A stretch of 64,000 nt of DNA. Origin: Polyangia bacterium. GTDB lineage: Bacteria; Myxococcota_A; Polyangia; JAAYKL01. Every line of letters starts with the position of its first letter. Within the stretch, counting starts at the first letter, position 1. Of this stretch, positions 14,163 to 31,781 are shown one piece after another. The notes beneath the pieces are model-generated. The model had not been told where the DNA came from. It saw only the letters and a program-made list of their open reading frames with translations, and ran no database searches. The position numbers were made by a program, and so were the translations under genes. The stretch covers positions 18,489-82,488 of the forward strand of contig JBNLED010000218.1 of the NCBI GenBank assembly GCA_050304755.1, given 5' to 3'.

Positions 14163-15122
14163 CTACCGTGAGGCGTCTTCCCTCAGGAACCCAATGATGA
14201 TCGGATTGACCACGGCGGCCTGTTCGTAGTGGGGGACGTGCCCCGCCTCTTTGATCTCGTGAAAACGAACACCGGGGATCGCGGATTGGATGGCGTCGAT
14301 GTTCTCTTGGGTGATGGTGCGATCCGCTGCCCCCCGAAAGAGCAGCACCCGCCGCCCGGCCCGGCCGAGGGCCCGGTACTCGACCAGCGGATCGACATCC
14401 CGCATGAGGTTCCGGAGGGTGGAGAGGATCGCCCGGCGGTACCCTTTATACCGCATCTGGACCTGGTACCGCGCCACCCAGTCGGGGAAGCGCTCGGGCC
14501 GGTAGAAGTCCTTCTTCTGCGAGGCCGGGAACAGGAACGGGATCGCGTAGACCGCCATGACGTACTCTCCGATGAGGGGGACGTTGGTGGGGAAGACCTC
14601 CTGCAAGGTCAGCGCCTCGGTCAGGGGATCGATGAGCGTGACCGTACGCACCCTGGCGGGGAACCGGTTGGCGAAGGCCGCCGCGATGGGCCCCCCCATG
14701 GAGAGCCCGACGATGTGGAACGGCGCATCGATCTTCAGCGCCCCCACCAGCTGATCCAGCTGGGAGACGAAGAGATCCAGGTCGTACACCACATCCGGGC
14801 GATCGGAGAATCCGCGCCCGAAGAGATCGTACCGCAGCACCCGGAACCCCGCCCCGGTCAACGCCTCGAAGGTGGGATCCCAGATGTGGCTCGGCACCGA
14901 GAAGCCGTGCACCAGCACCACGAGGGGGCCCTTTGCCGGCCCCTCCAGCTCATAGCGCACCTCGCCCTGTTGCAGCGAGATATACTGCCCGGGCAGGGCG
15001 GAACGGGCCGCCGCGTCCAGCGCGGCATGCTCCTTGTCCAGCACCAGGAAGGGGATCAGCAGGACTAGCGCCAGCGCCGCGCCGACAATCCCCATCTTCC
15101 TTATTCGTCTCCGGGCGTTCAT
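14163..15122 (-). CDS. alpha/beta-fold hydrolase, secreted/anchored
   Basis: HGFSVPSHIW, GLSMGG nucleophile elbow and a signal/anchor MGIVGAALALVLLIPFLV. Internal ATG chosen at 15122. Confidence 0.8.
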   Translation of the reverse strand: MNARRRIRKMGIVGAALALVLLIPFLVLDKEHAALDAAARSALPGQYISLQQGEVRYELEGPAKGPLVVLVHGFSVPSHIWDPTFEALTGAGFRVLRYDLFGRGFSDRPDVVYDLDLFVSQLDQLVGALKIDAPFHIVGLSMGGPIAAAFANRFPARVRTVTLIDPLTEALTLQEVFPTNVPLIGEYVMAVYAIPFLFPASQKKDFYRPERFPDWVARYQVQMRYKGYRRAILSTLRNLMRDVDPLVEYRALGRAGRRVLLFRGAADRTITQENIDAIQSAIPGVRFHEIKEAGHVPHYEQAAVVNPIIIGFLREDASR

Positions 15123-16021: not shown

Positions 16022-18145
16022 ATGGAAAAGGCCAGAGCAATAGAGAAACGGCAGAATCGCCTTTCGGGGGAATCCAGCCCCTACCTCCTACAACACGCCG
16101 ACAACCCGGTCGACTGGTATTCGTGGGGGGAGGAGGCGTTCGAGCGGGCCGCGGCGGAGGACAAGCCGGTGTTCCTCTCCATCGGTTACGCGACCTGTCA
16201 CTGGTGCCACGTGATGGAGCGAGAATCCTTCGAGGACGCGGAAGTCGCCGCCCTCATGAACGAGACGTTCGTCTCCATCAAGGTGGACCGAGAGGAGCGG
16301 CCGGACATCGACCACATCTACATGACCGTCTGTCAGCTGATGACCGGCGGAGGGGGCTGGCCCCTGACGATTGTCATGACGCCGGACAAACGGCCGTTCT
16401 TCGCGGCCACCTATATCCCCAAGACCGCCCGGTTCGGTCGCAAGGGGATGACGGAGCTGATCCCGGCGATCCGGCGGGTGTGGAACGAGAACCGCGGGGA
16501 CATTCGCCGCTCGGCGGACGAAATCTCGGCCGCCCTCGCCCGAGCGGGGCACACCGGAACACCGGGGGATATCAAGCCCCCCGGCGAGGTGGCCATGGCG
16601 CTCGGGTACCGTCAGCTGAAGGCCGGCTTCGATGCCCGGAACGGCGGCTTCGGGACCGGGATGAAGTTCCCCACGCCTCACCAGCTCATGTTCCTCCTCC
16701 GCTATTACGCGAGGACCCGGACCCCCGCGGCCCTCGACATGGTGGAGAAGACCCTCACCGCCATGCGCCAGGGGGGAATCTACGACCACATCGGCTTCGG
16801 GTTCCACCGCTATTCGACGGATCCAGAGTGGCGGGTGCCCCACTTCGAGAAGATGCTCTATGACCAAGCGCTGCTCCTCATCGCCTACCTCGAGGGGTAC
16901 CAGGCCACCGGGAAGCCCGCCTACAAAGAGACCGCCCGGGAGATCGCCACCTACGTGCTGCGGGACATGACCTCCCCCCTCGGCGGTTTCTACTCCGCGG
17001 AGGACGCGGACTCGGAGGGGGTGGAGGGCAGGTTCTACACGTGGACCACCGAGGCGCTCCGGCAGAGCCTGGACAGCGCCGCCTTCGACTTGGTGGCGGA
17101 ACGGTTCGATCTGCGGGAGGAGGGGAATTTCGATGACGGCGAGGAAATGAGCGCGGGCCGAAACGTGCTCATCGCGAGGGCGCCCCTCGAGACCGTCGCC
17201 GGAAGGCTCGGTCTGTCACCGGAGGAGACCGCCCGGCGGTCCGAGACCGCCCGGCGGGTGCTCTTCGAGACCCGGGAGGGGCGAATCCATCCGCTCAAGG
17301 ACGACAAGGTGCTCACCGACTGGAACGGCCTGATGATGGGGGCCCTGGCCCGGGCCGGACGGGTGCTCGGAGACGCCGACCTCGTCGCGGCGGCCCGGCG
17401 GAACGCGGCCTTCATCCGGGAACGGCTCACCGGGGCGGACGGCCGCCTCCTCCACCGCTTCAGGGACGGAAACGCCGGGCTGCCGGCCCACCTGGACGAC
17501 TACGCCTTCGTGGCCTTCGGGCTCCTCGAGCTCTACGAGGCCACCTTCGATCCCGCCTATCTCGCGGAGGCCCTCCGGCTGACCGGGGTGATGCTCGAGC
17601 ACTTCGCCGACGCCGAAGGGGGCGCCCTTTTCCTCACCTCCGACGACGCCGAAACGATCCTCGTCCGCGCCAAGGAGCTCTATGACGGCGCCCTGCCCGC
17701 CGGCAACTCCGTGGCCCTCGGCAACCTGCTCCGCCTCCATCAGATGACCGGACGCCCGGCGCTCGAGCGGGCCGCCCGTCACATCGCGGCGGGGTTCGCC
17801 CGGGACGCCGGCCAGCGCCCTATCGGCCACACCATGTTTCTCTGCGGGCTCGACTTCGCCGTCGGGCCGTCCGTAGAGGTGGTCATCGCGGGCAAGCGGG
17901 AGGCGGAGGACACCCGGGAGATGGTGCGCGCCCTCGAACGCCGTTTCCTGCCGAACAAGGTCGTCCTCCTCCGAGACGAGCAGTGCCTCCCGGCCCTCGA
18001 GGCGATCGCCCCCTTCGTCGCCCATCAGCCCCAAAGAGACGACCGGGCCACCGCTTATGTCTGCGTCGATCACGCCTGCTCGACCCCCACTACGGATCCG
18101 GAGGAGATGGTGCGGAAGATCACGGCCTACGTCCGACCGGAATAA
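16022..18145 (+). CDS. thioredoxin-domain protein YyaL/DUF255 family (N-terminal Trx fold plus six-hairpin glycosidase-like domain)
   Basis: [21 protein letters not shown]...[19 protein letters not shown] is the hallmark DUF255 N-terminus. 707 aa. Confidence 0.9.
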
Positions 18146-18198: not shown

Positions 18199-19317
18199 TC
18201 ACTGACAGTCGTGGTTGAGCTCGACCCCGCGATCCTCGAGGGCCGCGATATCTCCCTGAGTGACGGGATCGTCGCAGTCGAGAGGGTTGTCGTCGATACG
18301 CACCCTGTCGCCATTCCCAACGCCGGGGTTGCTCACGAGCGCCGAGAGGTCGGTGATGTTGTTGTCGTCGAGGAGGAGATCAACCAGGTCGGCCAAGCCG
18401 GCCAGGGGCGAGAGGTCGCTGACGCTGTTTTCGCTGAGGAAAAGGAGTGTCAGGTCGCCCATACCGGCCAGGGAGGAGATATCGCTGATGCGGTTGCCCC
18501 AGAGGTAGAGGACCGTCAGGTCGGTCAGGTCGGCCAGGGACGAGATGTCGCTGAGGTCATTCGAGTAGAGGTAGAGCTCTTTCAGCTGGGTCAGGCCGGC
18601 CAGGGGCGAGACGTCGCGGAGGTCGTTGGAGCTGATGTAGAGGACCGTCATGTCGGTCATGCCGGCCAAGGGCGTCAGGTCGCTGATTTGGTTGCTGGAA
18701 AGGTTGAGGATCGTCAGCAGGGTCATGCCGGCCAAGGGCGAGATATCGCGGATTTGGTTGCGGTAGAGGGAGAGATCCCTCAGGTCGGTCAGGCCGGCCA
18801 AGGGCGAGATGTCGACGATGAAAATGTTTAAATTGAGGTTGAGTTCGCGGAGGTGGGTCAGGCCGGCCAGAGGCGAGATGTCGGTGATGCCGGAAAAGAA
18901 GCGATAGACATCCGCCTCCAGGTTAAGAGACCTCAGGCCGGTCAGACACTGGATGCCGGTCAACTCTGAGATCTCCCCTCCGTTCGCGGACAATTCACGC
19001 AGATCGTCGACATCATCATAGTAAATGTCCCCGCTCGACTTTCCAATCGCATCCCTCACCCGTTCCAACAAATACTCATCCGGAAAGTCAATCGGACCGC
19101 GGCATCCTTGAGGCACAGTCATATCACTTTCCGTCCCGGCGGCGGTGTCGACTTCAGTGTCTGCGAAGAACTTTGAGTCCGTATCCGTAACCACGTCCGT
19201 ATCACCGTCGGTCGAACGGTCTCCCTCGCCCACCGTGGCCTCATCCCCTCCCGTAACTCTGCGGCATCCGGATGCCCCCCACATCCCTACAAGAATAGTA
19301 AGTACGATCAGCTTCAT
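18199..19317 (-). CDS. leucine-rich-repeat (internalin-like) lipoprotein
   Basis: Lipobox GASGC, Asp/Thr-rich linker, then 10 or more 22-residue LRRs (L.DLS.N.ISDISPLAGLT.L..L.L). Confidence 0.85.
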   Translation of the reverse strand: MKLIVLTILVGMWGASGCRRVTGGDEATVGEGDRSTDGDTDVVTDTDSKFFADTEVDTAAGTESDMTVPQGCRGPIDFPDEYLLERVRDAIGKSSGDIYYDDVDDLRELSANGGEISELTGIQCLTGLRSLNLEADVYRFFSGITDISPLAGLTHLRELNLNLNIFIVDISPLAGLTDLRDLSLYRNQIRDISPLAGMTLLTILNLSSNQISDLTPLAGMTDMTVLYISSNDLRDVSPLAGLTQLKELYLYSNDLSDISSLADLTDLTVLYLWGNRISDISSLAGMGDLTLLFLSENSVSDLSPLAGLADLVDLLLDDNNITDLSALVSNPGVGNGDRVRIDDNPLDCDDPVTQGDIAALEDRGVELNHDCQ

Positions 19318-19373: not shown

Positions 19374-20867
19374 TTACGGCGTCCCTGCGAACGTGGTCAC
19401 GCTGCGAGCGGGCAGCTCATAGGTGAAGCGGGACTCGCTGACGGACACAGCGGTTTTGGCGGCCAGGTCGTCGCTGGACGAGGTCACCCAGGGGATCATG
19501 GCGCACGGCGCGGCGTCCTCGATGAAGACCGAGAGCGCGGTGGCGCTGTTGTTGTTGTTGGCGGCCACCACGACGACGGTGCCGTCGCCCGGGTCCTTGT
19601 AGGCCGACAGGAGCACCCCCGCGGGCACGCTGCCCGAGGTGACCACCCGGAGGAAGTCGGGTCTCGCGAAGCGGCTGTAGTTCCCCATGACCCAGAGCCG
19701 CTTGGTGGGCTGATTGGTGTTGAGATCCCAGAGGGCCCCGTTGTCATCGCAACAGGGATAGACCCACCAGAAGTGCCACGCGCTCATGTTGATACGGGTC
19801 AACGAGTCGTGCATCATCGCGACGACTCGGAGGGCGCTGTCCATCCCCGTGTCCGCGACGTTCGATTCCTGGTCATAGATCTCGGTCTGCCAGAACTCCA
19901 TCCCGGCCGCCGCGATTTCCGGGTAGGGGACCTTCCAGGTCTGATCCCTGCACCCGTATTCGTGGGTGGCGAGGATGTCGGTATAGGACGCGGCCGTCCC
20001 GTTGCCGAGGATCGCGTCGACGTACTGACCGAACCCGCACCAGTTCTGGCTCTCCCCCGCCATGATCCGCACCCCGGTTCCCTCCAGCGCGGGGCCGAGG
20101 TGGTCGGCGACGAAATCGGCCATCTGCGGTCCGGTGTAATCGCACGACTCGTAGTCCACCGTGGCGTCCGGCTCGTTTTGCACGGACACGGCATAGAGGT
20201 CCACGCCGTTCGACTGCATGGTGCTCACGAAGGCGGCGAGGGTAGTGGCCCATCCCGCGCCGTCGGTAAGCGTCCCCCCGACGTCGCTGTTGTTCGACTT
20301 GAAAGACGGCGTGGGGGTCCAGGGGGTCGCCCAGACAAGGGCGCCGCGGGCGACGGCCATCTTGGCGATATTGGTCTCGGAGGTGCCGCCGTCCGGCGCG
20401 ATCCGGATGCGATGTAGGGAGAGCCCCGCCCCGCTCTCGGTGGACCAGAGCAGGTCCGCGTCCGACTCGCTCATGCTGGATCCCCACGCGGTGGAGGCGC
20501 CGAATCCGGCGATCCGCTGCTGTTCACCGGAGAGCTGAATCACCACATCACCGCCCGACGGGGTCCCGCCACCGCAGACATCGGTGTCCGCGTCCGTATC
20601 CGCGTCCGTGTCTGCATCGGTATCCGCATCCGTATCCGCATCTGTATCCCCGTCGGCATCTGAGTCTGTATCTGTGTCCGTGTCCGTGTCCGTGTCGGTA
20701 TCTGCATCGGCGTCGGTATCCGCGTCCGCGTCGGTATCCGCATCTCCGCCCATGCCGGTATCCTGACCGCCGGCGTCTACCGCGTTTTCATTGCTATCGG
20801 AGCAGCCCGACGCGAGCGCGTTCGCCCAGACAGCGCATAAGGTCAGCAATAATCCAGAGAGTCGCAT
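19374..20867 (-). CDS. glycoside hydrolase family 30-like (xylanase/glucosylceramidase clan) lipoprotein with poly-(DT/DA) linker
   Basis: Lipobox LASGC, a (DADT)n linker, GFGASTAWGS and the catalytic-region motif SVQNEPD. Confidence 0.75.
   Translation of the reverse strand: MRLSGLLLTLCAVWANALASGCSDSNENAVDAGGQDTGMGGDADTDADADTDADADTDTDTDTDTDTDSDADGDTDADTDADTDADTDADTDADTDVCGGGTPSGGDVVIQLSGEQQRIAGFGASTAWGSSMSESDADLLWSTESGAGLSLHRIRIAPDGGTSETNIAKMAVARGALVWATPWTPTPSFKSNNSDVGGTLTDGAGWATTLAAFVSTMQSNGVDLYAVSVQNEPDATVDYESCDYTGPQMADFVADHLGPALEGTGVRIMAGESQNWCGFGQYVDAILGNGTAASYTDILATHEYGCRDQTWKVPYPEIAAAGMEFWQTEIYDQESNVADTGMDSALRVVAMMHDSLTRINMSAWHFWWVYPCCDDNGALWDLNTNQPTKRLWVMGNYSRFARPDFLRVVTSGSVPAGVLLSAYKDPGDGTVVVVAANNNNSATALSVFIEDAAPCAMIPWVTSSSDDLAAKTAVSVSESRFTYELPARSVTTFAGTP
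20578..20745 (-). repeat. tandem 6/12-bp repeat (GTATCCGCATCC-like) encoding (DADT)n
   Basis: Visible short-period repeat within the GH30 gene. Confidence 0.8.
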
Positions 20868-21540: not shown

Positions 21541-24111
21541 CTACTGAACGGGATAGAGCCGGAACGCCTCGGCGGTGCCGGGGAGGCCGTCCAGGCCCGG
21601 GGTGCCCGGGGAGAAGCCGCCGTTGCCGGCGCCCCCCGGCGCGGGGAGCGGGTCCACGTGGTTGAGCGCCCGTAGCGTCTCCACATAGGGTGCGCCGTCG
21701 ACTGTCGCGGGCTGTACCACATGGAAGCCGGAGACGGAGCCGCCGCAACCGCCGCCGCCGCCGCCGCCCGCGCCGCCGGCCCCGCCGTCTCCGCCCCGAC
21801 CGCCCCGCCGGCCGCACCAGTAGTTGCCGTCCCCGCCGTCTCCACCGGTGCCGGGGGCCCCTCCCGCGGCGCCGAGCCCGCCGTCTCCGCCGTCACCGGC
21901 CCGGGCCGGAATCACCCGGACTTTCTCGACGAGCGGGCCGCCGCCGTCCGACGTGAGGACGATGGCGAGACCGATGGAGCTGCCCCCCCCGGTGCCCGCC
22001 GCCGCGCCCACGGCGCCGCAACCGCCGGAACCGCCGCCGCCGCCCGCGCCGCCGATCCGATCGGTGTAGCTCGAGGAGATGCTGTTCCATTGGAGCACGT
22101 CGTAGCCGTTGCCCTGGGTTCCGCCGCCGCCGCCGCCGCCGTCCGTGCCGTCCCCGCCGGCGATCCCCGGTGAGGTGGTCCATAGCCCGGTGGCGAGGTC
22201 GAAGGTCCCGAGGGCCGTCCGGCACCCATCCCCCCCCGCTCCGTCCGCGCCGTCTCTTCCCGGCTCGCCGTTGCCCCCCACCCGCTGAAGTGACGGATCA
22301 TCGGCGCAGTAGTTGCTGCCCGCCCGCGTGGTGGGCGCGTCGTAGGTCACCGGCCCGGCCGCCCCACCGCCGGCCCCGTGACCCGCCTCCGCGGAGGGAT
22401 TGGAGACGGCCGCCGCCTGCATGGTCTCGTAGTCGCACGCGTCGCCGAGCATGAAGTCCGTACAACCGGCGTTGGGGCAGGGCTCCCCCTCCAGACAGCC
22501 GGTGTCCGGGCAGGAGGAGCTCCCGCCGAGGCCGCCGCTGATGTCCGCTCCGGTCGCGGGGCAGGTCTTCAGGCCGCCGTCACCGCCGGGCGCCGACTGC
22601 CCCTCGCAGAGGTTCGTGTTCGCGTCGAACCCCTCGGCCCCCTCCCCGCCGGAGAACCCGTCGAGGGTCGAGAGGCCGCCGCCGGTAAGCGCTTCCAGCA
22701 CCTCGGAGGAGGAGCTCCCGTCCCCGCCGTCCACCCCCTGCCCCGCGATAATCCGGATATCGTGAAAGTAGAGGTTCTCGTCCGAGTCCGACAAAAACGC
22801 CGCGGTGGAGCCGGTCCCCGGAGACTCGCCGTTCGACCCCACCAGCGTCAGCCCCGAGATCTCCGTGGGAGATCGGATCCCATCCCCCTCCAGCACCGGG
22901 AGCCCTTGGCGCTCCGTCGGGCGCTCCACCTTCACCTCGAACACCTCCGGGTCGTGGTCTCCGAAATCCGACCGGTACCCCCCGAACACCGACACCCCCG
23001 CCCGGAGCACCACGGTCTGATCATAGCTCCCCTGGGCCACGACCACGGTGAGGAGGCGGGGGGTCGCCAGCGCGATCCCCCGGTTGATCGTCGCCACGGG
23101 GAACTCGAGGGTGCCGGGGTTGCTATCGTCGCCGGTCTTGGAGACGAAGATGAACGCCTCGGTGGTGTCCACCGTTCCGTCGCAGTCCATGTCCCCGCCG
23201 AAGGAGAGGGGGGGCCACACCGAGTTCACCTTGAAGCACTCGCACCCGTTCAGGCTGAGCCCGTCGAGGTCCACGTGGTTGTCCGCGCACTCCCGCACGC
23301 AGGTGGGCTGCCCGCCGATGTTGCGGCAGGAGGCCACGGTGTTGGGGGCGAGCTCGTCGCACGGGTGGTTGCAGGCGCCGCAGTGATCGTCCGTGAGGTA
23401 GAGGCCGTCGCGGGTGAAGTCCTCGTCGATCCGGCCGTTGCAGTTGTTGTCCTCGCCGTCGCACTGCTCTTCGTGGACGGGCCCGCAGAGGGAGAGGGCC
23501 TCGCCGTCACACGCCTGGGTGCCGTAACAGAGCCGGTCCCCACGGGGGCTCTGGAGCCAGCAGCCGAATACGGCGCCCGCCTGGTCCGGGGTGCAGGCGC
23601 AGTGGCCGCTCACCGGCACGCAGAGCTCCCGCTCCCCGAAGGGGGTGCAGGTGAACCCCGTGTCGCAGCGACCGTCGTCACAGGGAACGAGGCAGCGCCG
23701 ATCGCCGAAGGGCAGCGGGACGCAGGTCGCGGACGGGTCCACCGCGGTGCAGTCCTCCTCGAAGGTGCAGGAGAGGCAGGTGATGTTCCGGTCTGGAACG
23801 CAGGCCGCCTCCCCCACCAGGTGGGTCCCCTCCGGACACTGGACGATCTTGCAGGCGAACCCGAGATCCGAGGGCTCGCAGGCGACGGTCTCGGCGGTGG
23901 GGAAGACCTCGTTGCAGTCGATGCCGCAGCCGCCGCAGTGTTCCACGAGGTGGTACTCCCCGAGTTCGTTTACGAAGTATTCGTCAACAATGCCGTTCCA
24001 GTTATCGTCCTCGAAGTTGCAGATTTCATCCTCGCCGATACTCGTCTCGAAGCAGGCGACGGCCCCGAGAGCGATCAGGAGGATTGCTCCGAATTTAACG
24101 AACGACGACAT
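21541..24111 (-). CDS. giant secreted protein: MopE-like Cys-rich repeats (C..DNDC.G..DE...HCG.CG..C), a beta-helix-cap-like domain, and a Gly-rich C-terminal half
   Basis: Signal MSSFVKFGAILLIALGAVAC. At least 3 DN[DN]C[DN]G..DE motifs. IFVSKTGDDSNPGTLEFPVATINRGIALA resembles a pectin-lyase-fold N-cap. Long GGxGGxGG tracts. Confidence 0.75.
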   Translation of the reverse strand: MSSFVKFGAILLIALGAVACFETSIGEDEICNFEDDNWNGIVDEYFVNELGEYHLVEHCGGCGIDCNEVFPTAETVACEPSDLGFACKIVQCPEGTHLVGEAACVPDRNITCLSCTFEEDCTAVDPSATCVPLPFGDRRCLVPCDDGRCDTGFTCTPFGERELCVPVSGHCACTPDQAGAVFGCWLQSPRGDRLCYGTQACDGEALSLCGPVHEEQCDGEDNNCNGRIDEDFTRDGLYLTDDHCGACNHPCDELAPNTVASCRNIGGQPTCVRECADNHVDLDGLSLNGCECFKVNSVWPPLSFGGDMDCDGTVDTTEAFIFVSKTGDDSNPGTLEFPVATINRGIALATPRLLTVVVAQGSYDQTVVLRAGVSVFGGYRSDFGDHDPEVFEVKVERPTERQGLPVLEGDGIRSPTEISGLTLVGSNGESPGTGSTAAFLSDSDENLYFHDIRIIAGQGVDGGDGSSSSEVLEALTGGGLSTLDGFSGGEGAEGFDANTNLCEGQSAPGGDGGLKTCPATGADISGGLGGSSSCPDTGCLEGEPCPNAGCTDFMLGDACDYETMQAAAVSNPSAEAGHGAGGGAAGPVTYDAPTTRAGSNYCADDPSLQRVGGNGEPGRDGADGAGGDGCRTALGTFDLATGLWTTSPGIAGGDGTDGGGGGGGTQGNGYDVLQWNSISSSYTDRIGGAGGGGGSGGCGAVGAAAGTGGGSSIGLAIVLTSDGGGPLVEKVRVIPARAGDGGDGGLGAAGGAPGTGGDGGDGNYWCGRRGGRGGDGGAGGAGGGGGGGCGGSVSGFHVVQPATVDGAPYVETLRALNHVDPLPAPGGAGNGGFSPGTPGLDGLPGTAEAFRLYPVQ

Positions 24112-26689
24112 CGAAAGTGCCTCCATCCTGACCCGGAACGCCCCCCGCGCCGCCCACGCCGTTGTTCCCCCCCTCCCCCGGACGCCCCAGATCGAAGCGA
24201 TTCTGCTCGGTCAACCGGGCGCTCACCTCCGGGGCCGCGCCGCCGCCGAGGGCCAACCAGACACCGACGGTGGAGCCCCCACAGCCCCCGCCGCCCCCGC
24301 CGCCCCGGCCCCCTGCGCCGCCGGCCCCCCCGTGGCCGCCGCCGTCCGGCCCCGACAGGGACGGGATAGTCCGCTCGGTGGGGCGCAGCTCGCCGCCCTG
24401 GCCGCCCTGGCCGCCCTGGCCCCCATCGCCGCCGTGCCCCCCGGCGCCGCCGTCGCCGCCGTCACCGGTGACAATGGAAACATCCGTTATGGCGGGGGCC
24501 TCCTCGGGCCGCTCCAGGATCAGGACGATCCCCACGGCGGGACCGCCGGAGATCCCGGGGGCGCCGCCTTGCCCCCCGCAGCCGCCCGCGCCGCCCCCAC
24601 CGCCGCCGCCGCCGATGCCGTCCGCGTAGGGGCAGAGGGCGCCGTTGATGCCCGCGCTGCCGCCCGCGCCGCCCCCACCGCCGCCCGCGCCCGGGCTACC
24701 GTTCGTGCCGTTAGACGCCTCCGCGCCGCTCCAGATGCCGCCCGCGATAGCCCCAAGCGCGTCTACGCACCCACCGCCGCCGACGCCGGCGGCGCCGTTC
24801 GCCCCGGCGGCGCCGTCCCCCGCCATCTCATGGGAGCCCGACACCGTGAAGTCCGCGAGGCCGCAGTAGACCGTGCCATTGATCGTGATGGGCCCGAGGG
24901 CGTCCCAGCCGCCGCTCCCGCCGACGCCGCCGGAAGCCCCCTCGACGCTCTGGCCGTCCTCCCCGGCGGGCTGGATATGCTCGTAGCTCACGGCGCAGGT
25001 GCTGTCCCCGCCCTGGCCGCCGCTGACCTCGACGCCGCCGCAGGAGAAGCGCCCCCCGTCGCCCCCCTGGTTGATGTTCTCCTCGCCGTCGACGCAGGAA
25101 TAGCCCTCGTCCTCCACGGCGATTCGCTGGGGGCTGCCCGCGGCGCCGGAAGCGGCGGATTCACCGACGTCTCCGTCCGGGCCGTTCTCGCCGTCCGATC
25201 CGTCGCCGGTCCGGACGGTGCAGCCCGTCATCGTGAAGCCGCCCCCGGGGGTGTCCAGAAAGGCGCCGAAGGCGTATCGCTCCCCGAGGGGGGCCGAGGC
25301 GCCGCGGAATACGAGACCGTCGATGACGGTGGGCGAACGCGCCGCTCCCGCCTCGGCCACCAGGGCGGCGCCGCCGGGGCTGCCCTCCCAGTCCGGGGCG
25401 TGGATCTCCGTGGCGTAGGCCTGGGGATCCCGCTCGAGGAAGTCGGGCCGGTAGCCCCCGTGGATGTGGACGCCGTCCCTCACCCGGAGCACCTCATTGT
25501 AGACCCCTGCCGCCACGTAGACGTGGGGTCTCGGGTGATTGGTGGTGAGGGATCGGGCGGCCGCGTCCACTGCCCCCTGGAGGGTGGCGAGGGGATCCGC
25601 CGGCGTTCCCGAAGCGCCGTCATCGCCCGTGAGGACGACATAGACCCCCTCCTCCACCACGCCGTCCGCGCCGTCGCAGTTGGCGTCGAGGAGCGCCGGG
25701 TGCTCCGGCGAGTCGGCGCCGGGGTGGTCCTCCAGGCGCAGCATCTCGCACTCGCAGCCGTTCTCCGGATCGAGATCGGCGTCGACGAAATCCCCGACAT
25801 CGACGCCGTCGAAGGTGTCCTCGCAGAAGATGGCGCACACCGGCCGGAGGGAGTGGCCGCCGCAGGTGATCTCGAAGTTCGCCACCTGGTTGAGGGTGCA
25901 GTCCACCCCGCAGGCCCCGCAGTTGTGCAGGTCGGTGGTGTAGCGGCCCTCCGAGTCCACGAAGGGCTCGTCGGTCTCGCCGTCGCAGTCGTTGTCCACC
26001 CGGTCGCACACCTCCTCGCTGCCCGCGCAGGGGGAGAGCCTCCCGTCCTCGCAGCGGGACGTGCCGAAGCACTCCGCGCCGTTCACATCGATGGTGCACG
26101 ACACCGTGAAGTCGTCCTCCGGACCGCAGTTGCAGCTCCCGGAGGGGGGGATGCAGCGATCCCCGTCACACGCGTATCCCCCCGGACAGCCCCCGTCCTC
26201 GCAGGCCACGGTGCACCGGAGCTCGCCGGCGATATCCTCGCAGCGGGCCCCGTCGAAGCCCCCGCACTCGCCCCGGTCGAGGCACGGAGCGCAGAGCCAT
26301 CCGTCCCACGGGAGGCAGGTGGCGGATCCGCTCGGCACATACCCCTCGATGCACCGCGTCGCCACGCAGGCCGCGCCGGCCTCCGTCGATCGGCACTCCG
26401 CCGCCTCGGTGACCTCGTCCGGCACGCAGGGGGCGCCGCATCTCCCGCAGTGCGCGTCATGCACATAGACCCCCGCGTCGTTTCGGAAGTCCTCGTCCAC
26501 GAGCTCGTCCAGATCGTTATCGATGCGGTCGCACACCTCGGTGGTCGACATCCGGGATCCGTCCTCCCGCGGCACCGCGTAGGGGGACGTCACGTTGCAC
26601 GCCGGCCCCATCGCCGCGATGGCGAGCAGCACCCCCGCTTCGGCGGCATTCCTCAATCCGCGGTTTCTCATGGCGCTGCGGTTTCTCAT
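24095..26689 (-). CDS. giant secreted protein, paralog of 21541..24111 (MopE-like Cys-rich repeats plus Gly-rich beta-helix-like region)
   Basis: Same architecture: VCDRIDNDLDELVDE, VCDRVDNDCDGETDE, YVVLTGDDGASGTPADPLATLQGAVDAA, long Gly tracts. The start lies within an 18-bp tandem duplication MRNRSAMRNR. Confidence 0.75.
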   Translation of the reverse strand: MRNRSAMRNRGLRNAAEAGVLLAIAAMGPACNVTSPYAVPREDGSRMSTTEVCDRIDNDLDELVDEDFRNDAGVYVHDAHCGRCGAPCVPDEVTEAAECRSTEAGAACVATRCIEGYVPSGSATCLPWDGWLCAPCLDRGECGGFDGARCEDIAGELRCTVACEDGGCPGGYACDGDRCIPPSGSCNCGPEDDFTVSCTIDVNGAECFGTSRCEDGRLSPCAGSEEVCDRVDNDCDGETDEPFVDSEGRYTTDLHNCGACGVDCTLNQVANFEITCGGHSLRPVCAIFCEDTFDGVDVGDFVDADLDPENGCECEMLRLEDHPGADSPEHPALLDANCDGADGVVEEGVYVVLTGDDGASGTPADPLATLQGAVDAAARSLTTNHPRPHVYVAAGVYNEVLRVRDGVHIHGGYRPDFLERDPQAYATEIHAPDWEGSPGGAALVAEAGAARSPTVIDGLVFRGASAPLGERYAFGAFLDTPGGGFTMTGCTVRTGDGSDGENGPDGDVGESAASGAAGSPQRIAVEDEGYSCVDGEENINQGGDGGRFSCGGVEVSGGQGGDSTCAVSYEHIQPAGEDGQSVEGASGGVGGSGGWDALGPITINGTVYCGLADFTVSGSHEMAGDGAAGANGAAGVGGGGCVDALGAIAGGIWSGAEASNGTNGSPGAGGGGGGAGGSAGINGALCPYADGIGGGGGGGGAGGCGGQGGAPGISGGPAVGIVLILERPEEAPAITDVSIVTGDGGDGGAGGHGGDGGQGGQGGQGGELRPTERTIPSLSGPDGGGHGGAGGAGGRGGGGGGGCGGSTVGVWLALGGGAAPEVSARLTEQNRFDLGRPGEGGNNGVGGAGGVPGQDGGTFDVVVR

Positions 26690-26696
26690 GGCGCTG
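26661..26696 (-). repeat. perfect 18-bp tandem duplication (CGGTTTCTCATGGCGCTG x2) spanning the start codon of giant protein 2
   Basis: Exact duplicate in the DNA. Encodes SAMRNR twice and creates two in-frame ATGs. Confidence 0.9.
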
Positions 26697-27210
26697 ATGT
26701 TTTGCTCTCCTCGCGAGTGTTTATTGCCTCGAATTGGAATTGTATAGAATGGATCCGCTTCCTGCAAACTTCAAAAGAAGCCTCTCCGTTAAAGGTATCG
26801 ATAATCGACCGACGGAATTCGCGGTGTCCTCGAAGACCTATCTAAAACACACGCGGCGGACGACAGGCGGGCGGATTTTCGGGAGGGTTGAAACCTCCGA
26901 TTTCTGGTACACTCACCCCACGGACAAAAAATCGGAGATGCCATGCCGACACCGAAAAGGCCCGACAACGGCGTAACGAAGCGGGCGGTCTGGAATGACC
27001 AAACGGAGCTCTGGGAGCAGGTAGTGATATAGAAGGCGGTCGCCGCGGGCCGGGCGACCTGCCCTCACGCAATGAACAGGAGGTCTCAAATATGCAGGCC
27101 GTAGAAGCGAGTGAACCTCGGCCGCCGAAAGTGAACGCCGGACATGGTTGTATTTGTCTCCAATTTCTCTATAACGAATTGTAATTGTCTTGGTTCGAGA
27201 AGGAGAGATC

Positions 27211-28191
27211 ATGGCTGATTTGACGACCCGGTATTTGGGGATGACGCTGAAAAACCCAGTGATGGTGGCGAGCTGTGGGCTCACGGAGACCGCGACCGGA
27301 GTGCGGAAGGCCGAGGACGCGGGGGCCGGCGCCGTGGTGATGAAGTCGGTCTTCGAGGAGCAGATCAACGCCGAGGTGGACGCCCTGGCGGATCAATCCC
27401 CCCAGGACCACCCGGAGTGGCAGGACTACCTCGGGGCGTTCGGCAAGGAGGACAGCCTGAAGCAATACCTGTCGGAGATCGAGAAGGCCAAGAAGGCCGC
27501 CTCGATTCCCGTGTTCGGCAGCGTGAACTGCGTCTCCAAGGGGGGGTGGACCGACTTCGTCCGGCGGCTGGAGGCGACCGGCGTCGACGGGATGGAGCTG
27601 AACGTCTTCGTCATCCCGAGCGATGTCCAGAAGACCTCAGAGGAGATTGAGAAGACTTATATCGATATCTTCAACGAGCTGAAGTCTCTCATCAGCATCC
27701 CGGTGGTGTTGAAGGTGCCCCCCTACATCACCACGCCGGGCCGCTTCATCCGCCGGCTGGTGGACCACGGCGTCAAGGGGCTCGTGCTCTACAACCGCCC
27801 TGTGCCCTTCGATGTGGACATCGAAAAACAGCGGGTGGCCGTACGCAGCGTTATCAGCGCGCCGGAGGAGCTCGCCTTCTCCCTTAGAATGAGCTCCATC
27901 GTCTCGGGCTATTACGAGTGCGATATCGCCGCCAGCACGGGAATCCACGACGCCGAGGCCGCCATCAAGCACCTCATGGTGGGGACGGACGTGGTCCAGC
28001 TCTGCTCCGCGATCTACAAGAACGGCTTCAAGTATATCCGTAAGGTCATCGACGACATCAACGAGTGGCTGGATACCCACCGCATCGCATCGGTCGACGA
28101 TATCCGGGGCCGGCTGTCGCGGAAGAACAGTCCTCATCAATTCGACTACGAACGGGCCCAGTACATCAAGGCGTTCGGGAACATCAAATAG
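27211..28191 (+). CDS. dihydroorotate dehydrogenase-like TIM-barrel flavoprotein (DHOD/DHPD family) lacking the canonical SCPN catalytic Cys
   Basis: MVASCGLTET...AGAVVMKS, then ELNVFVIPSD where ELNxSCPN is expected. AAGGAGAG RBS. Confidence 0.8.
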   Translation: MADLTTRYLGMTLKNPVMVASCGLTETATGVRKAEDAGAGAVVMKSVFEEQINAEVDALADQSPQDHPEWQDYLGAFGKEDSLKQYLSEIEKAKKAASIPVFGSVNCVSKGGWTDFVRRLEATGVDGMELNVFVIPSDVQKTSEEIEKTYIDIFNELKSLISIPVVLKVPPYITTPGRFIRRLVDHGVKGLVLYNRPVPFDVDIEKQRVAVRSVISAPEELAFSLRMSSIVSGYYECDIAASTGIHDAEAAIKHLMVGTDVVQLCSAIYKNGFKYIRKVIDDINEWLDTHRIASVDDIRGRLSRKNSPHQFDYERAQYIKAFGNIK

Positions 28192-28204
28192 GAGCGACGG
28201 ACCG

Positions 28205-30007
28205 ATGAGGGGACAAGGGATTTGCCTCGCGATTGCCGCGGGGCTGGTAGTTCTGGCCTGCGGAGATCGCGCCCCCGTGACCGCCGGCGTCGATACGGAT
28301 ACCCGACACGGCGGCGTCACGCTCCTCGCGGATACCGCGACGGTCGAGGGTGACACCGCGACCGCCGGGGGCGACACCGCCTCCGCCCGGGGCGACACCG
28401 CCTCCGTTGAAGAAACGCCGGTGACGCTCGAGAATATCGAAGTGCTGCTCAATCCGTACGGACGGGCTCCCCTCACGGCGATCATCAAGGTGACCCACCC
28501 GCTCCTGGTGCCGGAGGAGGTGAGATCGATCCGGGTGACCGTCGAGGGCCAAGGGGATCCGCCGGAGGATCTGGTCGCCGAGCTCGACCCCCGATCGGAG
28601 GCGTACAGGACGAGCTTCGACATGGGCGATCAGGTGTTCGCGGGGGAGTTGGGGATTCCCGTGCTGGGGCTCTATCCGGAGTCGGACAACCGGATCGGGC
28701 TCGAGGTCGGCACCCCTGATGCGACTTTTCGCGGGGAGGTGGTGATCACCACCGACGTCATCCCGGAGCTCGAGGGGGAGACGGCCCGCGTCCAGGTCCT
28801 CGATCCGGATCGCATCGAGCCCGGGTGGACCTATATCGACAAGCGGGTCTACGACCACCAGGGGCGCTGCCGCTGGATCGGTCCGCGGCTCTACCACATC
28901 CTCGAGAATGGCAACATCCTCATCGCCATCGACGAATACAACTGGCTCGGCCGGCGCGTCAGGGATCGGAGCCTGTCGAGGCAGTTCGAGTTCCATCACG
29001 ACGCCATCGGGCTCGGGAACGGCAACTACGTGGTCTGTGTCAACGACCCCGAGACGACCATCGTCAACGCCTTCGGCGAGCTCGTCACCGAAGAGGACCA
29101 AGCCGTGGAGGTGGACGGGGAGACCCGGGAGATGGTCAATGTGTGGGACATGAGGGGGGTGCTGGACGTGGACCGGCACACGGTCTCCCTGAACTACCAA
29201 GGGGCGGACTGGTTTCACATGAACACCGTGACCTACAGCGCCGCGGATGATGCCCTGCTGTTCTCCGGACGGTACCAGGGGATCGTCAAGATGACCCGGG
29301 ACGGCGTCCACGGGGAGGCCCCGAACGCGGGCAAGTCCCTCGTCTGGATTCTGGCCCCCCACATGGGCTGGGGGCCGTCAGGGCCGGACGGCGAGGGGGA
29401 TATCGATCCCAACGACTACCTGCTCACCGCGGTGGACTCCGAAGGTCGCCCCTATCCGGAGGAGGTCCAGAACAACCTGGCGCCCCCTTCGGCGGACCGG
29501 GAGGCGTTCTACTGGCCCATAGGGCAGCACGGCATCGAGATCACTGATCGGGAGGAGGGGAAGATCGCCTTTCTCACCTTCAACAACCAGGCGTCCTTTA
29601 TCTTCGACGGCGAGGACACCATCGACAACGGGGTGACGACCGCCAAGCAGGGAGACCTGAGCAACGACCGCGCCGAGGAGCCCTTCAGCCAGATCATCGA
29701 GTACGAGGTGGACGAGGTCGCCATGACGGTCCGGCAGAAGTGGAGCTTCGGCGAGTATCGCAGCGAGCTCTACGGCGCCTACAACTCGGACGTGTGCGTA
29801 TTGCCCGTTACCCGGAACCGGATGATGACCACCAACGGCGCGGACTGGCACGAGGACAGGCCGCCCCACCCCCACGTCATCGAGATGACCCTGGAGGGGG
29901 AGGAGCTGTATCACCTGGAGATCGAGAACGCGACCTTCTCCGCCATGCGCGGCGGGCGCATCGATCTCTACCACCCGGAGCGACTGGCGCCGCGGTCGAA
30001 CCGATGA
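28205..30007 (+). CDS. arylsulfotransferase (ASST)-family-like beta-propeller lipoprotein
   Basis: Lipoprotein signal LVVLACG. FEFHHDAIGLGNGNYVV, WDM, DWFHMNTV match ASST (PF05935-like) motifs (by recall). Confidence 0.65.
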   Translation: MRGQGICLAIAAGLVVLACGDRAPVTAGVDTDTRHGGVTLLADTATVEGDTATAGGDTASARGDTASVEETPVTLENIEVLLNPYGRAPLTAIIKVTHPLLVPEEVRSIRVTVEGQGDPPEDLVAELDPRSEAYRTSFDMGDQVFAGELGIPVLGLYPESDNRIGLEVGTPDATFRGEVVITTDVIPELEGETARVQVLDPDRIEPGWTYIDKRVYDHQGRCRWIGPRLYHILENGNILIAIDEYNWLGRRVRDRSLSRQFEFHHDAIGLGNGNYVVCVNDPETTIVNAFGELVTEEDQAVEVDGETREMVNVWDMRGVLDVDRHTVSLNYQGADWFHMNTVTYSAADDALLFSGRYQGIVKMTRDGVHGEAPNAGKSLVWILAPHMGWGPSGPDGEGDIDPNDYLLTAVDSEGRPYPEEVQNNLAPPSADREAFYWPIGQHGIEITDREEGKIAFLTFNNQASFIFDGEDTIDNGVTTAKQGDLSNDRAEEPFSQIIEYEVDEVAMTVRQKWSFGEYRSELYGAYNSDVCVLPVTRNRMMTTNGADWHEDRPPHPHVIEMTLEGEELYHLEIENATFSAMRGGRIDLYHPERLAPRSNR

Positions 30008-30026
30008 ACCGAGCCGCTGATCCGAG

Positions 30027-31781
30027 ATGATAGTTACTTTAGGGCATTTGAGTATTGTCGGCCTTCTCTTCTTTGGAGCGGCGTGCGGCGATCACGCCCC
30101 CTTCCGCCCTTTGGAGGAGGAGGGGGACACCGTACCGATCCCCGATTCCGATCCCGTCATCCTTCTCGAGTCGATCGGGAGTGACACCGGAGAGGTCGAG
30201 GTCGAGGCCGCCACCCCCCTTCCGGAGGAGAGCGTCGAGGTCCTGCTGAACCCCTACGACAGCGCGAAGCTCGCGGCCATCGCCGTCGTCCGCCACCCCG
30301 ACGTCTCCCCCGAGGCGGTGGACGAGATGCGCATCACCGTCACCGGTCAGCGGGGGGCGGAGAACCTCACAGCGATGCTCGATCCCCGATCGGCGGCCTT
30401 CGAAGCCCACTTCGGCATGGACGATCAGCTGGCCGACGGGGAGGTGGGCGTCCCAATCCTCGGGCTGTTCGCGGGCCTCGTGAACGAGGTGGCGATCGGG
30501 CTCCGCGTCGAGGAGACGTGGTACGAGGGTCGAGTCGACATCCCGGTGGAGCCGATCCCCGAGCTCGACGAGGAGAGCGTGACCGTCGACCTCATCGCGC
30601 CCGAACGGATGGCGCCGGGGTGGACCTACCTGAACGGCCGGGTCTACGATCACCAGGGCAACTGCCGGTGGATGGGCCGCAAGATCTTCCACCTCCTCGA
30701 CAACGGCAACATCCTCTCCGGGATCGACGAGCGCAACTGGCTCGGACGGAACGTCAACAACCGGAGCCTGCCGGGCCACCTGGGCTTCCACCACGACGCC
30801 GTCGATCTGCCGAACGGAAACATCGTGGCCTGTATCAACAACCAGGAGACCACGGTGGTGGACGCCTTCGGAGACAAGATCACGAGCGTCGAGGACTACA
30901 TCGTCGAGCTGGACCCGGCGGGCGAGATCCGGAACGCGTGGGACATGCGGGAGTTCCTGGACGTGAACCGGGGCACCGTGGCGAGCCTCGGGGACGACTG
31001 GTTTCACATGAACACCCTGGCCTACGACGAGCAGGACGACGCGCTCCTGGTCTCGGGGCGCTTCCAGGGCATCGTGAAGGTCACCCGGGGGGGGATCCGG
31101 GGGGAGACGGCCAACGCGGGCAAGGCGCTGGTGTGGATCTTGGCCCCCCACCTGGACTGGGGCCTGGCGGGGCCGGACGGCGCGGGGGATATCGATCCCA
31201 ACGACTACCTGCTCACCGCGGTGGATTCGAACGGAACGCCTTACGCCCAGGCGGTCCAGGACAACCTCGCGGCGCCGGAGCCGGGGGAGGAACCGTTCCA
31301 CTGGCCGGTGGGGCAGCACGGCCTCGAGATCACCGAGCGCGGCGAGGGCCGGCTCTCAATTCTCACCTTCAACAACCAGGCCTCCTTCATCTTCGACGGC
31401 GAGGGGACGGTGGACAACGGCGCCGGGCTCACCTTCGAGGGGGACCTGAGCAACGACCGCGCCGAGGCGCCCTACAGCATGATCATCGAGTACGAGGTGG
31501 ACGAGATCGCCATGACGGTCCGGCAGAAGTGGAGCTTCGGCGAGGGGGAGCACGACTGGTACGGCGGGTTCGCGTCCGGCGTGGCGCAGTTGGGGACCAC
31601 GGGGAATCGCATGATGATCTCCAACGGCGCGGAGCAGCTGCACATGCGGATCAACCCGTACAACCCCCACGTTATCGAGGTCGCCGAGGACGGGGAGATC
31701 CTCTATCACTTTGAGGCGGTGGACACCCAGGAATCGGCGCACCGCGCCGGCCGGATCGACCTCTATCATCCCAGCCCCTGA
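30027..31781 (+). CDS. arylsulfotransferase (ASST)-family-like lipoprotein, tandem paralog of 28205..30007
   Basis: Roughly 60% identical by eye to the upstream gene (FHHDAVDLPNGNIVACIN, DWFHMNTL, GRIDLYHP). Signal LLFFGAACG. Confidence 0.65.
   Translation: MIVTLGHLSIVGLLFFGAACGDHAPFRPLEEEGDTVPIPDSDPVILLESIGSDTGEVEVEAATPLPEESVEVLLNPYDSAKLAAIAVVRHPDVSPEAVDEMRITVTGQRGAENLTAMLDPRSAAFEAHFGMDDQLADGEVGVPILGLFAGLVNEVAIGLRVEETWYEGRVDIPVEPIPELDEESVTVDLIAPERMAPGWTYLNGRVYDHQGNCRWMGRKIFHLLDNGNILSGIDERNWLGRNVNNRSLPGHLGFHHDAVDLPNGNIVACINNQETTVVDAFGDKITSVEDYIVELDPAGEIRNAWDMREFLDVNRGTVASLGDDWFHMNTLAYDEQDDALLVSGRFQGIVKVTRGGIRGETANAGKALVWILAPHLDWGLAGPDGAGDIDPNDYLLTAVDSNGTPYAQAVQDNLAAPEPGEEPFHWPVGQHGLEITERGEGRLSILTFNNQASFIFDGEGTVDNGAGLTFEGDLSNDRAEAPYSMIIEYEVDEIAMTVRQKWSFGEGEHDWYGGFASGVAQLGTTGNRMMISNGAEQLHMRINPYNPHVIEVAEDGEILYHFEAVDTQESAHRAGRIDLYHPSP

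Follow-up and report, generated by a model that had tools for sequence, protein, structure and literature searches.

A conserved overlapping gene pair of Myxococcota encoding predicted lipoproteins with a predicted beta-helix and a Gly-rich, possibly polyproline-II domain

Described proteins with comparable parts

To our knowledge, Gly-rich polyproline-II bundle domains are represented by a handful of solved structures, and we otherwise know of them from phage fibres, arthropod antifreeze proteins, ALK/LTK and mycobacterial PGRS proteins. The systems used here for comparison are gp38 of phage S16 (6F45), gp33/gp29 of Bxb1 (9D93), the antifreeze proteins 7JJV and 2PNE, the Gly-rich domain of ALK/LTK and AlphaFold models of mycobacterial PE_PGRS proteins. 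The Bxb1 proteins were described as Gly-rich polyproline-II bundles, and it was argued that such domains tend to be taken for disorder and are therefore recognised less often than they should be (PMC13243192). PGRS "sails" were proposed to be N-terminally anchored and envelope-exposed (PMC9436101).

Two adjacent genes, B and A, in a 64,000-nt stretch of DNA from a Polyangia bacterium (the window) encode proteins that share GGx/Gxx tracts and a strong period-3 Gly signal with these bundles and would resemble the PGRS proteins in anchoring and exposure. As in the bundles, the confident model of A has no alpha or beta structure over most of its Gly-rich half, and as in gp38 a conserved Gly scaffold is combined with variable inter-tract loops. 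In contrast to the bundles, the domain of A and B also has predicted beta-strands, helices and 9-12 Cys, and it lacks a significant global structural match to them. Unlike PGRS proteins, A and B come from a Gram-negative host and carry the domain fused to a beta-helix. PE_PGRS membership was rejected, given that there is no Pfam PE domain and that a fixed length is kept, gaps among orthologs amounting to 1-3%; the UniRef name "PE-PGRS family protein" of the Sandaracinus amylolyticus ortholog reflects composition only.

The second comparison is with pectin-lyase-fold proteins such as phi29 gp12 (3gq7), AlgE4 (2pyg), Pel9A (1ru4) and PfbA (3zpp). The helix of A and B differs from theirs in having only ~6-7 rungs, set between a disulfide-rich stalk and the Gly-rich domain, and in lacking recognisable conserved catalytic residues; the Pfam match does not reach threshold and extends over only 40 of 257 profile positions.

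The third comparison is with "MopE-related" PF11617 proteins, which are abundant in Myxococcota and share with A and B the motif C-x-[DN]-G-x-D-[DN]-[DN]-C-[DN]-G-x-x-D-E, present twice per protein. Long relatives (1000-5150 aa) score above the Pfam threshold (103.5 bits for P0220) and carry the same unit of beta-helix and Gly-rich C-terminus; a Pfam scan of them for extra domains found only PF11617. In contrast, the window proteins stay below threshold and belong to a subfamily of ~860 aa that is defined by the conserved overlapping gene pair. Searches of PDB chains revealed no homology between A/B and MopE of Methylococcus beyond the short motif. The teneurin Cys-rich motif was aligned to the PF11617 consensus C.DG.DN.CDG..DE (PMC3278476); the teneurin domain shares only this motif of roughly 23 residues with A and B, the remaining architecture being unrelated.

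Gene pair, overlap and paralogy

The sequence-only reading had placed B and A next to each other on one strand, divergent from the DHOD-like and arylsulfotransferase genes and with a slight start/stop overlap. All of this proved correct, both genes lying on the minus strand with a 17-nt overlap (Table 1). The ORF of gene A spans 21541-24126, and translation probably starts at the ATG at 24111 (MSSFVKF...): a GGAGG lies 8 nt 5' of it, and the Met that it specifies is nearly invariant among homologs. P0211, an 856-aa protein from the same contig, clusters at 90% identity with P0001, whose sequence matches A at 100% identity. The ORF of gene B opens at a TTG at 26767, and its database copy P0099 (100% identical) begins at the ATG at 26689. 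The overlap of the two reading frames suggests translational coupling. A sigma-70-like consensus scan gave two sites, against 0.3 expected in shuffles. On the other strand the same DNA contains ORFs of 663 and 1084 aa, which were regarded as artefacts of GC-rich sequence, since homologs of the minus-strand products number in the hundreds.

Table 1. Features of the B-A gene pair in the window.
Feature	Positions	Strand	Description and basis
Gene B (upstream paralog)	24095..26689	-	864 aa, predicted lipoprotein; ORF and identical database protein P0099
Gene A (downstream paralog)	21541..24111	-	856 aa, predicted lipoprotein; ORF, RBS, Met, P0211
Overlap of B stop and A start	24095..24111	-	17 nt, ATGTCGTCGTTCGTTAA; TAA of B at 24095-24097
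Sigma-70-like promoter match	26739..26768	-	TTTGCA-18-TACAAT, ~50 nt upstream of the B start; consensus match only
A, disulfide-rich region	23167..24036	-	residues 31-320 (ORF numbering); Cys, motifs, beta-hairpins
A, right-handed parallel beta-helix	22717..23166	-	residues 321-470, DUF1565-type N-cap; AF2 prediction
A, Cys-bearing middle segment and Gly-rich domain	21544..22716	-	residues 471-861; GGx/Gxx triplet tracts
B, disulfide-rich region	25658..26596	-	~residues 58-370 (890-aa ORF numbering); motifs, invariant Cys, alignment to A
B, beta-helix	25208..25657	-	~residues 371-520 (890-aa numbering); approximate bounds from alignment to A
B, C-terminal Gly-rich half	24098..25207	-	~residues 521-890 (890-aa numbering); 8 Gxx-triplet tracts, invariant Gly

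The pairwise alignment confirmed that A and B are paralogs with a common architecture, as had been supposed: BLASTP showed 32% identity over 786 columns (E=2e-45), and a profile-profile comparison of the two ortholog families covered 782 columns with a probability of 100%, an end-to-end alignment in both cases. The window holds no third copy. Across Myxococcota loci the A proteins group together, as do the B proteins, the bit scores being 400-1000 among A orthologs, 420-1045 among B orthologs and at most 225 between A and B.

Predicted four-part architecture

The signal peptide read from the sequence is present in both proteins, and its type could be specified as a predicted lipoprotein signal with an invariant Cys. 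This residue follows a hydrophobic segment and corresponds to C25 in the A family and to C31 in the B family, where its conservation is 90% or more. Of 57 A1 homologs (mostly A orthologs, with a few of B type), 51 have a hydrophobic-x3-Cys site, which usually reads L-x-G-C; the window copies, AVAC and GPAC, are less canonical. On this lipobox, A and B are predicted lipoproteins.

Each protein has about 34 invariant Cys; in A, 34 lie within the N-terminal 320 residues. AF2 models residues 31-320 of A with a beta-hairpin DSSP pattern at pLDDT 83-95. A regex search for C-x-[DN]-x-x-D-[DN]-[DN]-C-[DN]-G-x-x-D-E followed by [HN]CGxCGxxC returned two copies per protein, so that the Cys modules exist but are not "several". 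The copies are at residues 36-49 and 222-235 in A and at 79-92 and 254-267 in B (890-aa ORF numbering); in both window proteins the first is degenerate and lacks the second Cys (W in A, L in B). In A, the first motif is followed by HCGGCGIDC and the second by CGACNHPC, both of CGxCxxxC type. The likeness to MopE is sound at the level of the family, in which PF11617 is matched at E<0.01 by 42 of 58 homologs (best 9.4e-7), but not for the window proteins, which reach 16.7 bits (A, residues 216-235) and 23.9 bits (B, residues 249-267) against a gathering threshold of 27. The lipobox, the 34 invariant Cys and the thioredoxin and DsbD genes directly after the pair at locus L001 were counted in favour of an envelope location.

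PF11617 is named "Cu-binding_MopE, putative metal-binding motif", and its matches in the window and the family would agree with A and B handling copper through Cys/Asp motifs that bind Cu in the manner of Methylococcus MopE. We consider this very improbable, as the scores are under threshold and the match is limited to a motif of roughly 20 residues. Moreover, no MopE entry came up among all PDB chains, which presumably include a solved MopE structure, in phmmer and profile hmmsearch runs (E up to 1 and 10). By general coordination chemistry, Asp/Asn/Glu-rich ligands favour Ca2+ over Cu, and this motif, rich in the same residues, would be expected to follow suit. Teneurin Cys-rich domains, which have no relation to copper, contain this motif class as well (PMC3278476).

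The region that had been compared with a pectin-lyase-fold N-cap is predicted by AF2 to form a short right-handed parallel beta-helix in A, of ~150 residues and about 6-7 rungs. In B, the beta-helix is predicted by alignment and matches that of A column for column, including the N-cap YVVLTGDDGASGTPADPLATLQ and the GGYRxDFxxRD motif. The comparison held for the fold but not for the Pfam family: PF07602 (DUF1565) scores 19.0 bits in A, below its gathering threshold of 20.3, over profile positions 2-41 of 257, has no Pfam match in B and is found at E<0.01 in 14 of 58 homologs.

Many polysaccharide-active enzymes have a beta-helix fold; in addition, a GH30 glycosidase is encoded two genes downstream of the pair in the window and a Pel9A-like beta-helix protein near the pair in S. 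amylolyticus. These observations would fit A and B being lyases, hydrolases or epimerases with a catalytic beta-helix, the Cys-rich and Gly-rich parts serving as anchoring or carbohydrate-binding accessories. We judge this unlikely. The helix has only ~150 residues, the aligned length is 160-200 residues, and the adhesins PfbA, Vag8 and UpaB score similarly. Pfam covers the N-cap only, below threshold, NCBIfam gives no match, and the glycosidase and lyase neighbours are not kept at other loci. From residue 321 onward, the only invariant residues other than Gly and Cys are V328, D334, Y368, Y384, D387 and P731; D334, Y368, Y384 and D387 are the sole invariant polar residues in 321-470 of A and make up no recognisable catalytic constellation. 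No enzyme family was matched by A or B in Pfam, NCBIfam or PHROGs; apart from the beta-helix N-cap and artificial (GGGGS)n linkers, nothing was retrieved by sequence searches of NCBIfam, PHROGs and the PDB. The small number of such invariant residues and the lack of an enzyme-family match were counted in favour of a non-enzymatic role.

The C-terminal part is dominated by Gly as described from the sequence, with a Gly content of 33% over residues 601-861 in A and 38% over residues 601-890 in B. Its lag-3 autocorrelation is 0.42 in A and 0.46 in B, ~7 sd above the 0 +/- 0.06 of 1000 shuffles. Tracts of at least four GGx/Gxx triplets number 7-8 per protein, and Gly tracts of A lie at residues 617-634, 654-674, 692-709, 746-757, 772-798 and 841-852. 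This half is the most conserved part of the proteins, with a column entropy of ~1.5 (1.48 in B) and 1-3% gaps (1% in B), whereas the loops between tracts are variable (entropy 2.0-2.7 in some 10-residue blocks).

Full-length A was modelled with a mean pLDDT of 90.9 (all five models 89-91) but a pTM of only 0.65, because of which the arrangement of its domains is uncertain. About 77% of residues 601-861 are without DSSP helix or strand at pLDDT near 95-98. The isolated C-terminal half, run with a 23-sequence alignment, gave five unstable models (pLDDT 88, 79, 74, 65 and 55). Foldseek detected no significant structural match to the Gly-rich half in the PDB; four of its five weak matches belong to Gly-rich polyproline-II bundles, with three different structures among them (the Bxb1 tail tip, 9d93, and the antifreeze proteins of springtail, 7jjv, and snow flea, 2pne). 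The period-3 Gly spacing, the scarcity of helix and strand in the model and these matches were counted in favour of a polyproline-II reading, in which the Gly tracts would most likely be packed as polyproline-II/polyglycine-II helices.

The sequence-only reading had named a disordered Gly-rich half, together with Cys motifs that do not match MopE-like HMMs, as the result that would reduce A and B to low-complexity hypothetical proteins; the structure prediction instead gave a confidently ordered half with little alpha or beta structure. That this half is a disordered spacer or a collagen- or RTX-like repeat would be in keeping with a Gly content of 29-38% in the region and with GCC/GCCGCC micro-repeats in the DNA, yet it is hardly credible in the face of dozens of invariant Gly at fixed spacing, almost no indels among orthologs that are 40-70% identical, and pLDDT of 92-98. 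Collagen-like membership was rejected, the Gly tracts of at most 27 residues being too short, and so was RTX beta-roll membership: GGxGxD is scattered only 2-4 times without nonapeptide periodicity, the Gly period is 3 and not 9, and the Pfam search gave no HemolysinCabind match.

Conservation, proposed role and neighbours

The order B then A with a 17-nt or 4-nt (ATGA) overlap was found in the window and in six of six other Myxococcota loci examined (L001, L002, L003, L011, L012 and L013), among them that of the cultured S. amylolyticus, and at least 11 further A and B homologs lie on contigs of identical size. A genome-collection scan from the A1 alignment, in which the back-translated patterns were mostly poly-Gly, yielded at least seven distant loci; L006 alone was useful and contains a more distant tandem pair of A/B relatives. 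There are about 55 full-length A orthologs and about 80 B orthologs of 840-940 aa, including S. amylolyticus I5071_10850, and a profile search retrieved 1,138 clusters (50% identity) at E<=1e-30, all unnamed or "hypothetical". The combination of parts, which the sequence-only reading had not recognised, is not unique but shared by a large family; in the literature searched, the S. amylolyticus orthologs are named in no paper. Between L003 and L012, A is 78% and B 81% identical, against 70-93% for flanking housekeeping genes. Sequence comparison indicates that B and A make up an ancient unit of two genes, conserved as orthologs at all seven loci, and that both are under purifying selection, with a divergence like that of the adjoining housekeeping genes.

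Large secreted or lipid-anchored paralogs with variable inter-tract loops might make up a surface layer, or their genes a fast-evolving locus for adhesins or toxin delivery, under diversifying selection, as the sequence-only reading had proposed, and the known polyproline-II bundle domains of gp38 and PE_PGRS are surface recognition modules. We regard this as quite unlikely. The notion of a fast-evolving locus fails because the pair is ancient, orthologous and housekeeping-like in its rate of divergence. In addition, the proteins keep a fixed length of about 840-940 aa with about 1-3% gaps, each locus has a single pair without cassette arrays or mobile-element context, and no toxin, secretion or S-layer domain was matched in Pfam, NCBIfam or PHROGs.

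Taken together, we propose that A and B are coupled lipoproteins of four-part build that form a non-enzymatic binding or structural hetero-complex in the cell envelope, a functional reading that we think has an even chance of being right. As ancient duplicates, the two genes would be co-transcribed and probably translationally coupled, so that both proteins would be made in equal amounts, oxidised in the periplasm and assembled into an A-B complex on a cell-envelope membrane, most likely the outer one. The lipid-modified Cys would serve as anchor for a rigid stalk of ~290 residues with roughly 17 disulfides, whose two Asp/Asn-rich MopE-type loops most likely bind Ca2+. The short beta-helix of ~150 residues would come next, followed by a domain of ~390 residues in which the GGx/Gxx tracts most likely adopt polyproline-II/polyglycine-II conformation around a few beta-strands; the conserved Gly scaffold would display the variable loops. 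Conserved gene overlap and paralogy point to the hetero-complex, the lipobox to an outer-membrane or surface location, and we infer a binding rather than a catalytic role. More tentatively, and with less confidence, the proteins may represent an undescribed, very large, Myxococcota-centred lipoprotein family in which a new Gly-rich polyproline-II domain is mounted on a beta-helix and A and B form an obligate heterodimer.

If correct, this would be the first such polyproline-II domain family in Gram-negative cell envelopes, and it would give a function to the "MopE-related" and hypothetical proteins that fill myxobacterial genomes. For a fold class with few experimental structures, A and B would be a tractable model system of fixed length; more than 1,100 clusters, invariant Gly, high-confidence models and a cultured host, S. 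amylolyticus, add to their experimental promise, and the strictly conserved overlapping pair makes heterodimerisation a clear hypothesis that can be put to the test. Should the domain turn out to be an irregular solenoid of the ordinary sort, and A and B generic envelope lipoproteins, the outcome would be a useful family annotation and not more.

A conserved third partner gene was ruled out, every neighbouring candidate being lineage-specific. The flanking genes vary in every lineage and are unrelated, often housekeeping; they include those for an Lcl_C-like lipoprotein, GH30, thioredoxin/DsbD, PDZ and GGDEF proteins and PilMNOPQ.

Conservation of a tandem gene pair

The ORF listing of the window contains two long minus-strand ORFs that span 21541-26767. 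Judged by sequence comparison, their products are paralogs: A and B are 32% identical over 786 columns (BLASTP, E=2e-45), and comparing their orthologs profile to profile gave a probability of 100% across 782 columns. No third copy was found within the window. An earlier, sequence-only reading had correctly described the protein sizes, the gene overlap, the Gly-rich C-terminal halves and the DHOD-like and arylsulfotransferase genes that diverge from the pair. The Met at 24111 is nearly invariant among homologs and is likely the true start of gene A, which places the TAA stop of B 17 nt inside A. P0001, a database protein, is 100% identical to A, and P0211 (856 aa, from the same 87-kb contig) groups in its 90%-identity cluster. 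The start region of B (minus strand) is covered by an 18-bp perfect tandem duplication (GCGGTTTCTCATGGCGCT, 2.1 copies, window 26660-26696), which encodes MRNRSA-MRNRGL with in-frame ATGs at 26689 and 26671, so that the start of B is ambiguous by 6 codons. Two opposite-strand ORFs antisense to the pair, of 663 aa (22378-24369, +) and 1084 aa (23591-26845, +), were rejected as genes; both are rich in Arg, Pro and Ala, as is typical of shadow ORFs in DNA of 70-74% GC.

Features of the A/B pair and its surroundings in the window
Feature	Coordinates	Strand	Remarks
DUF255/DsbH thioredoxin-domain protein	16022-18145	+	
Secreted/lipid-anchored envelope protein genes	18199-19317 (-), 19374-20867 (-), 35114-37495 (-), 37931-40879 (+)		GH30 glycosidase and leucine-rich-repeat proteins
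Small predicted lipoprotein, 172 aa	20937-21455	-	85 bp downstream of A, same strand; Lcl_C 31.1 bits (threshold 34.9)
Gene A	21541-24111	-	ORF from 24126; likely true start ATG 24111 (MSSFVKF...); GGAGG 8 nt upstream
Gene B	24095-26689	-	ORF from TTG at 26767; database start ATG at 26689; database protein P0099 (864 aa) 100% identical, begins MRNRSAMRNRGL
Dihydroorotate-dehydrogenase-like (DHOD-like) gene, then two tandem arylsulfotransferase (ASST) paralogs (600 and 584 aa)	27190-31781	+	Divergent from B

The homology searches yielded orthologs of 840-940 aa with 38-69% identity, ~55 of them (full-length) for A and ~80 for B. Where an organism is named, the source is a Myxococcota, Polyangia, Sandaracinaceae or 'Deltaproteobacteria' genome; almost all of the orthologs are unnamed or 'hypothetical' in database annotation. 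In six of the six contigs examined, an A-type gene comes right after a B-type gene and overlaps it by 4 nt (ATGA) or 17 nt. One of the six is from cultured Sandaracinus amylolyticus, whose genome is complete and in which I5071_10850 overlaps the gene downstream of it. At least 11 further A and B homologs sit on contigs of identical length. The genes around the pair vary by lineage (rpsF-rpsR-rplI-dnaB with GGDEF and PDZ genes; ATP synthase; thioredoxin and DsbD; pilMNOPQ). An uncultured Myxococcales contig (L006, 7908-13226) has a tandem pair of more distant relatives, each sharing 32-37% identity with A and with B, and thus tandem pairing reaches beyond the ~860-aa subfamily.

All-against-all comparison gave 400-1000 bits for A against A orthologs and 420-1045 bits for B against B orthologs, whereas A against B reached at most 225 bits. 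Therefore, the duplication is older than the split between these lineages, and neither copy has been lost. Between L003 and L012, two Myxococcota loci with shared synteny, identity is 78% for A and 81% for B, against 70-93% for the flanking housekeeping genes. At the sequence level, these comparisons show that the pair is an ancient, conserved unit under ordinary purifying selection. The finding of a duplicated pair was real, and the pair is more conserved and widespread than first supposed. The accompanying suggestion of a fast-evolving adhesin, S-layer or toxin-delivery locus is contradicted by the conserved pairing, the ancient duplication with retention of both sets of orthologs and an A/B identity within the housekeeping range; we regard a variable surface layer or adhesin as improbable.

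Lipobox and cysteine-rich region

Both proteins carry an N-terminal signal, as had been noted, and it is to be read as a lipoprotein signal, with a Cys right behind the hydrophobic segment. This lipobox Cys never varies in the A family and is conserved to at least 90% in the B family, and a hydrophobic-x3-Cys site, usually L-x-G-C, is present in 51 of the 57 homologs gathered with A (mostly A orthologs).

Residues 31-320 of A (ORF numbering) include 34 invariant cysteines and were modelled by AlphaFold2 as a chain of beta-hairpins containing both Asp/Asn-rich motifs. Several Cys modules per protein had been claimed; a regex finds the Cys/Asp motif with [HN]CGxCGxxC only twice in each, and the first Cys/Asp copy is degenerate in both window proteins. 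The proposed likeness to MopE is confined to the motif: 42 of 58 family members have a PF11617 match (Cu-binding_MopE, 'putative metal-binding motif') at E<0.01, A scores 16.7 bits and B 23.9 bits, both under the threshold of 27, and sequence searches of the PDB returned no MopE entry, with no likeness to MopE outside the motif. The same Asp/Asn-rich Cys motif class is carried by the Cys-rich domains of teneurins (PMC3278476). Because the motif is carboxylate- and amide-rich, we infer that it binds Ca2+ rather than Cu, and a role of A and B in copper handling appears highly improbable.

A glycine-rich half predicted to be ordered

AlphaFold2 modelled full-length A from a 58-sequence alignment with a mean pLDDT of 90.9 (five models, 89-91) and a pTM of 0.65. 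Among orthologs 40-70% identical, column entropy is lower in the Gly-rich half (~1.5 bits) than elsewhere in the protein, gaps make up only 1-3%, and dozens of its Gly positions are invariant in the A and B families. Glycines recur at every third residue (lag-3 autocorrelation of 0.42 for A and 0.46 for B, versus 0 +/- 0.06 in shuffles) in 7-8 tracts per protein, each of 4-9 Gxx triplets, and the loops between tracts are variable (entropy 2.0-2.7 bits). In the full-length model, ~77% of residues 601-861 of A are without DSSP helix or strand, and 10-residue pLDDT means are mostly 92-98. Residues 471-861 modelled alone reached a best pLDDT of 88.2 and a pTM of 0.81, with the five models running from 88 down to 55, so the prediction is less robust out of context. 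Low entropy, scarce gaps, invariant glycines and a confident model led us to reject this half as low-complexity filler, and there is very little chance that A and B are plain low complexity.

Foldseek returned only five PDB matches to the Gly-rich half at E<=10, none significant. Four of these, representing three distinct structures, are Gly-rich polyproline-II bundles: the Bxb1 tail tip (9d93), the springtail AFP (7jjv) and the snow-flea AFP (2pne). A 2026 paper identified 9D93 gp33/gp29 and S16 gp38 as glycine-rich polyproline-II bundles (PMC13243192). We conclude that the Gly-rich half is an ordered domain, distinct from a canonical beta-helix and from an RTX beta-roll and without a solved structural homolog. 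Its most probable predicted build is a set of polyproline-II-type glycine helices that pack against a small number of beta-strands.

Proposed role, relatives and neighbourhood

A and B are two lipobox-bearing, disulfide-rich proteins with a predicted beta-helix and a conserved Gly scaffold, encoded in the same orientation with a conserved stop/start overlap. The lipobox and the disulfide-rich region mark them as envelope proteins. A non-enzymatic A-B hetero-complex has, in our estimate, an even chance of being correct. Translational coupling would yield A and B in equal amounts, and the complex would be anchored by the N-terminal lipid, probably to the outer membrane. A Ca2+-stabilised disulfide stalk and the beta-helix would project the Gly-rich domain, whose invariant scaffold may present the variable loops for binding, a display known from S16 gp38 and proposed for PGRS 'sails' (PMC9436101). 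The main rival, in which the beta-helix is catalytic and A and B are enzymes, is unlikely: no catalytic-type set is recognisable among the conserved residues, and no enzyme family in Pfam or NCBIfam matches.

Searching 1.84 billion cluster representatives with a profile returned 1,138 proteins at E<=1e-30, rising to 6,930 at E<=1e-10. Many members are 1,000-5,150 aa long; in these the Cys-rich module is repeated up to dozens of times and the complete unit (profile positions ~31-845) sits at the C-terminus; PF11617 is the only Pfam domain in these long relatives. In three giants of 3,400-5,150 aa (P0216, P0235 and P0335), up to 46 stretches match the Cys-rich module; the beta-helix/Gly-rich unit lies toward the C-terminus in P0216 and P0235 and is complete in P0235. 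In another relative, P0315 (1283 aa), this unit is N-terminal and is followed by ~590 residues without a Pfam match. The MopE-type motif, the pectin-lyase-fold helix and the Gly-rich triplet domain are each already known; the sources searched did not describe the three in this fixed combination, A and B as an obligate gene pair or the apparently unmatched Gly-rich fold, and did not mention the S. amylolyticus orthologs or the A/B architecture.

The gap between A and the 172-aa predicted lipoprotein gene holds a promoter-like and a terminator-like site, and this gene was not found beside the pair in the other loci examined. The lipobox of the GH30 glycosidase near the pair is followed by a long acidic (DADT)n linker. 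Together with at least three leucine-rich-repeat proteins, this glycosidase makes up a cluster of envelope proteins, secreted or lipid-anchored, around the pair. At L001, another locus with the pair, a thioredoxin gene and a DsbD-thioredoxin gene (12670-14535) directly follow it; these genes and DUF255/DsbH in the window fit a need for disulfide handling, and neither arrangement is kept across the loci examined. GC content is ~0.62-0.74 over the first 46 kb of the window and falls to ~0.57 from roughly 52 kb on, which may reflect a boundary in the contig's base composition.
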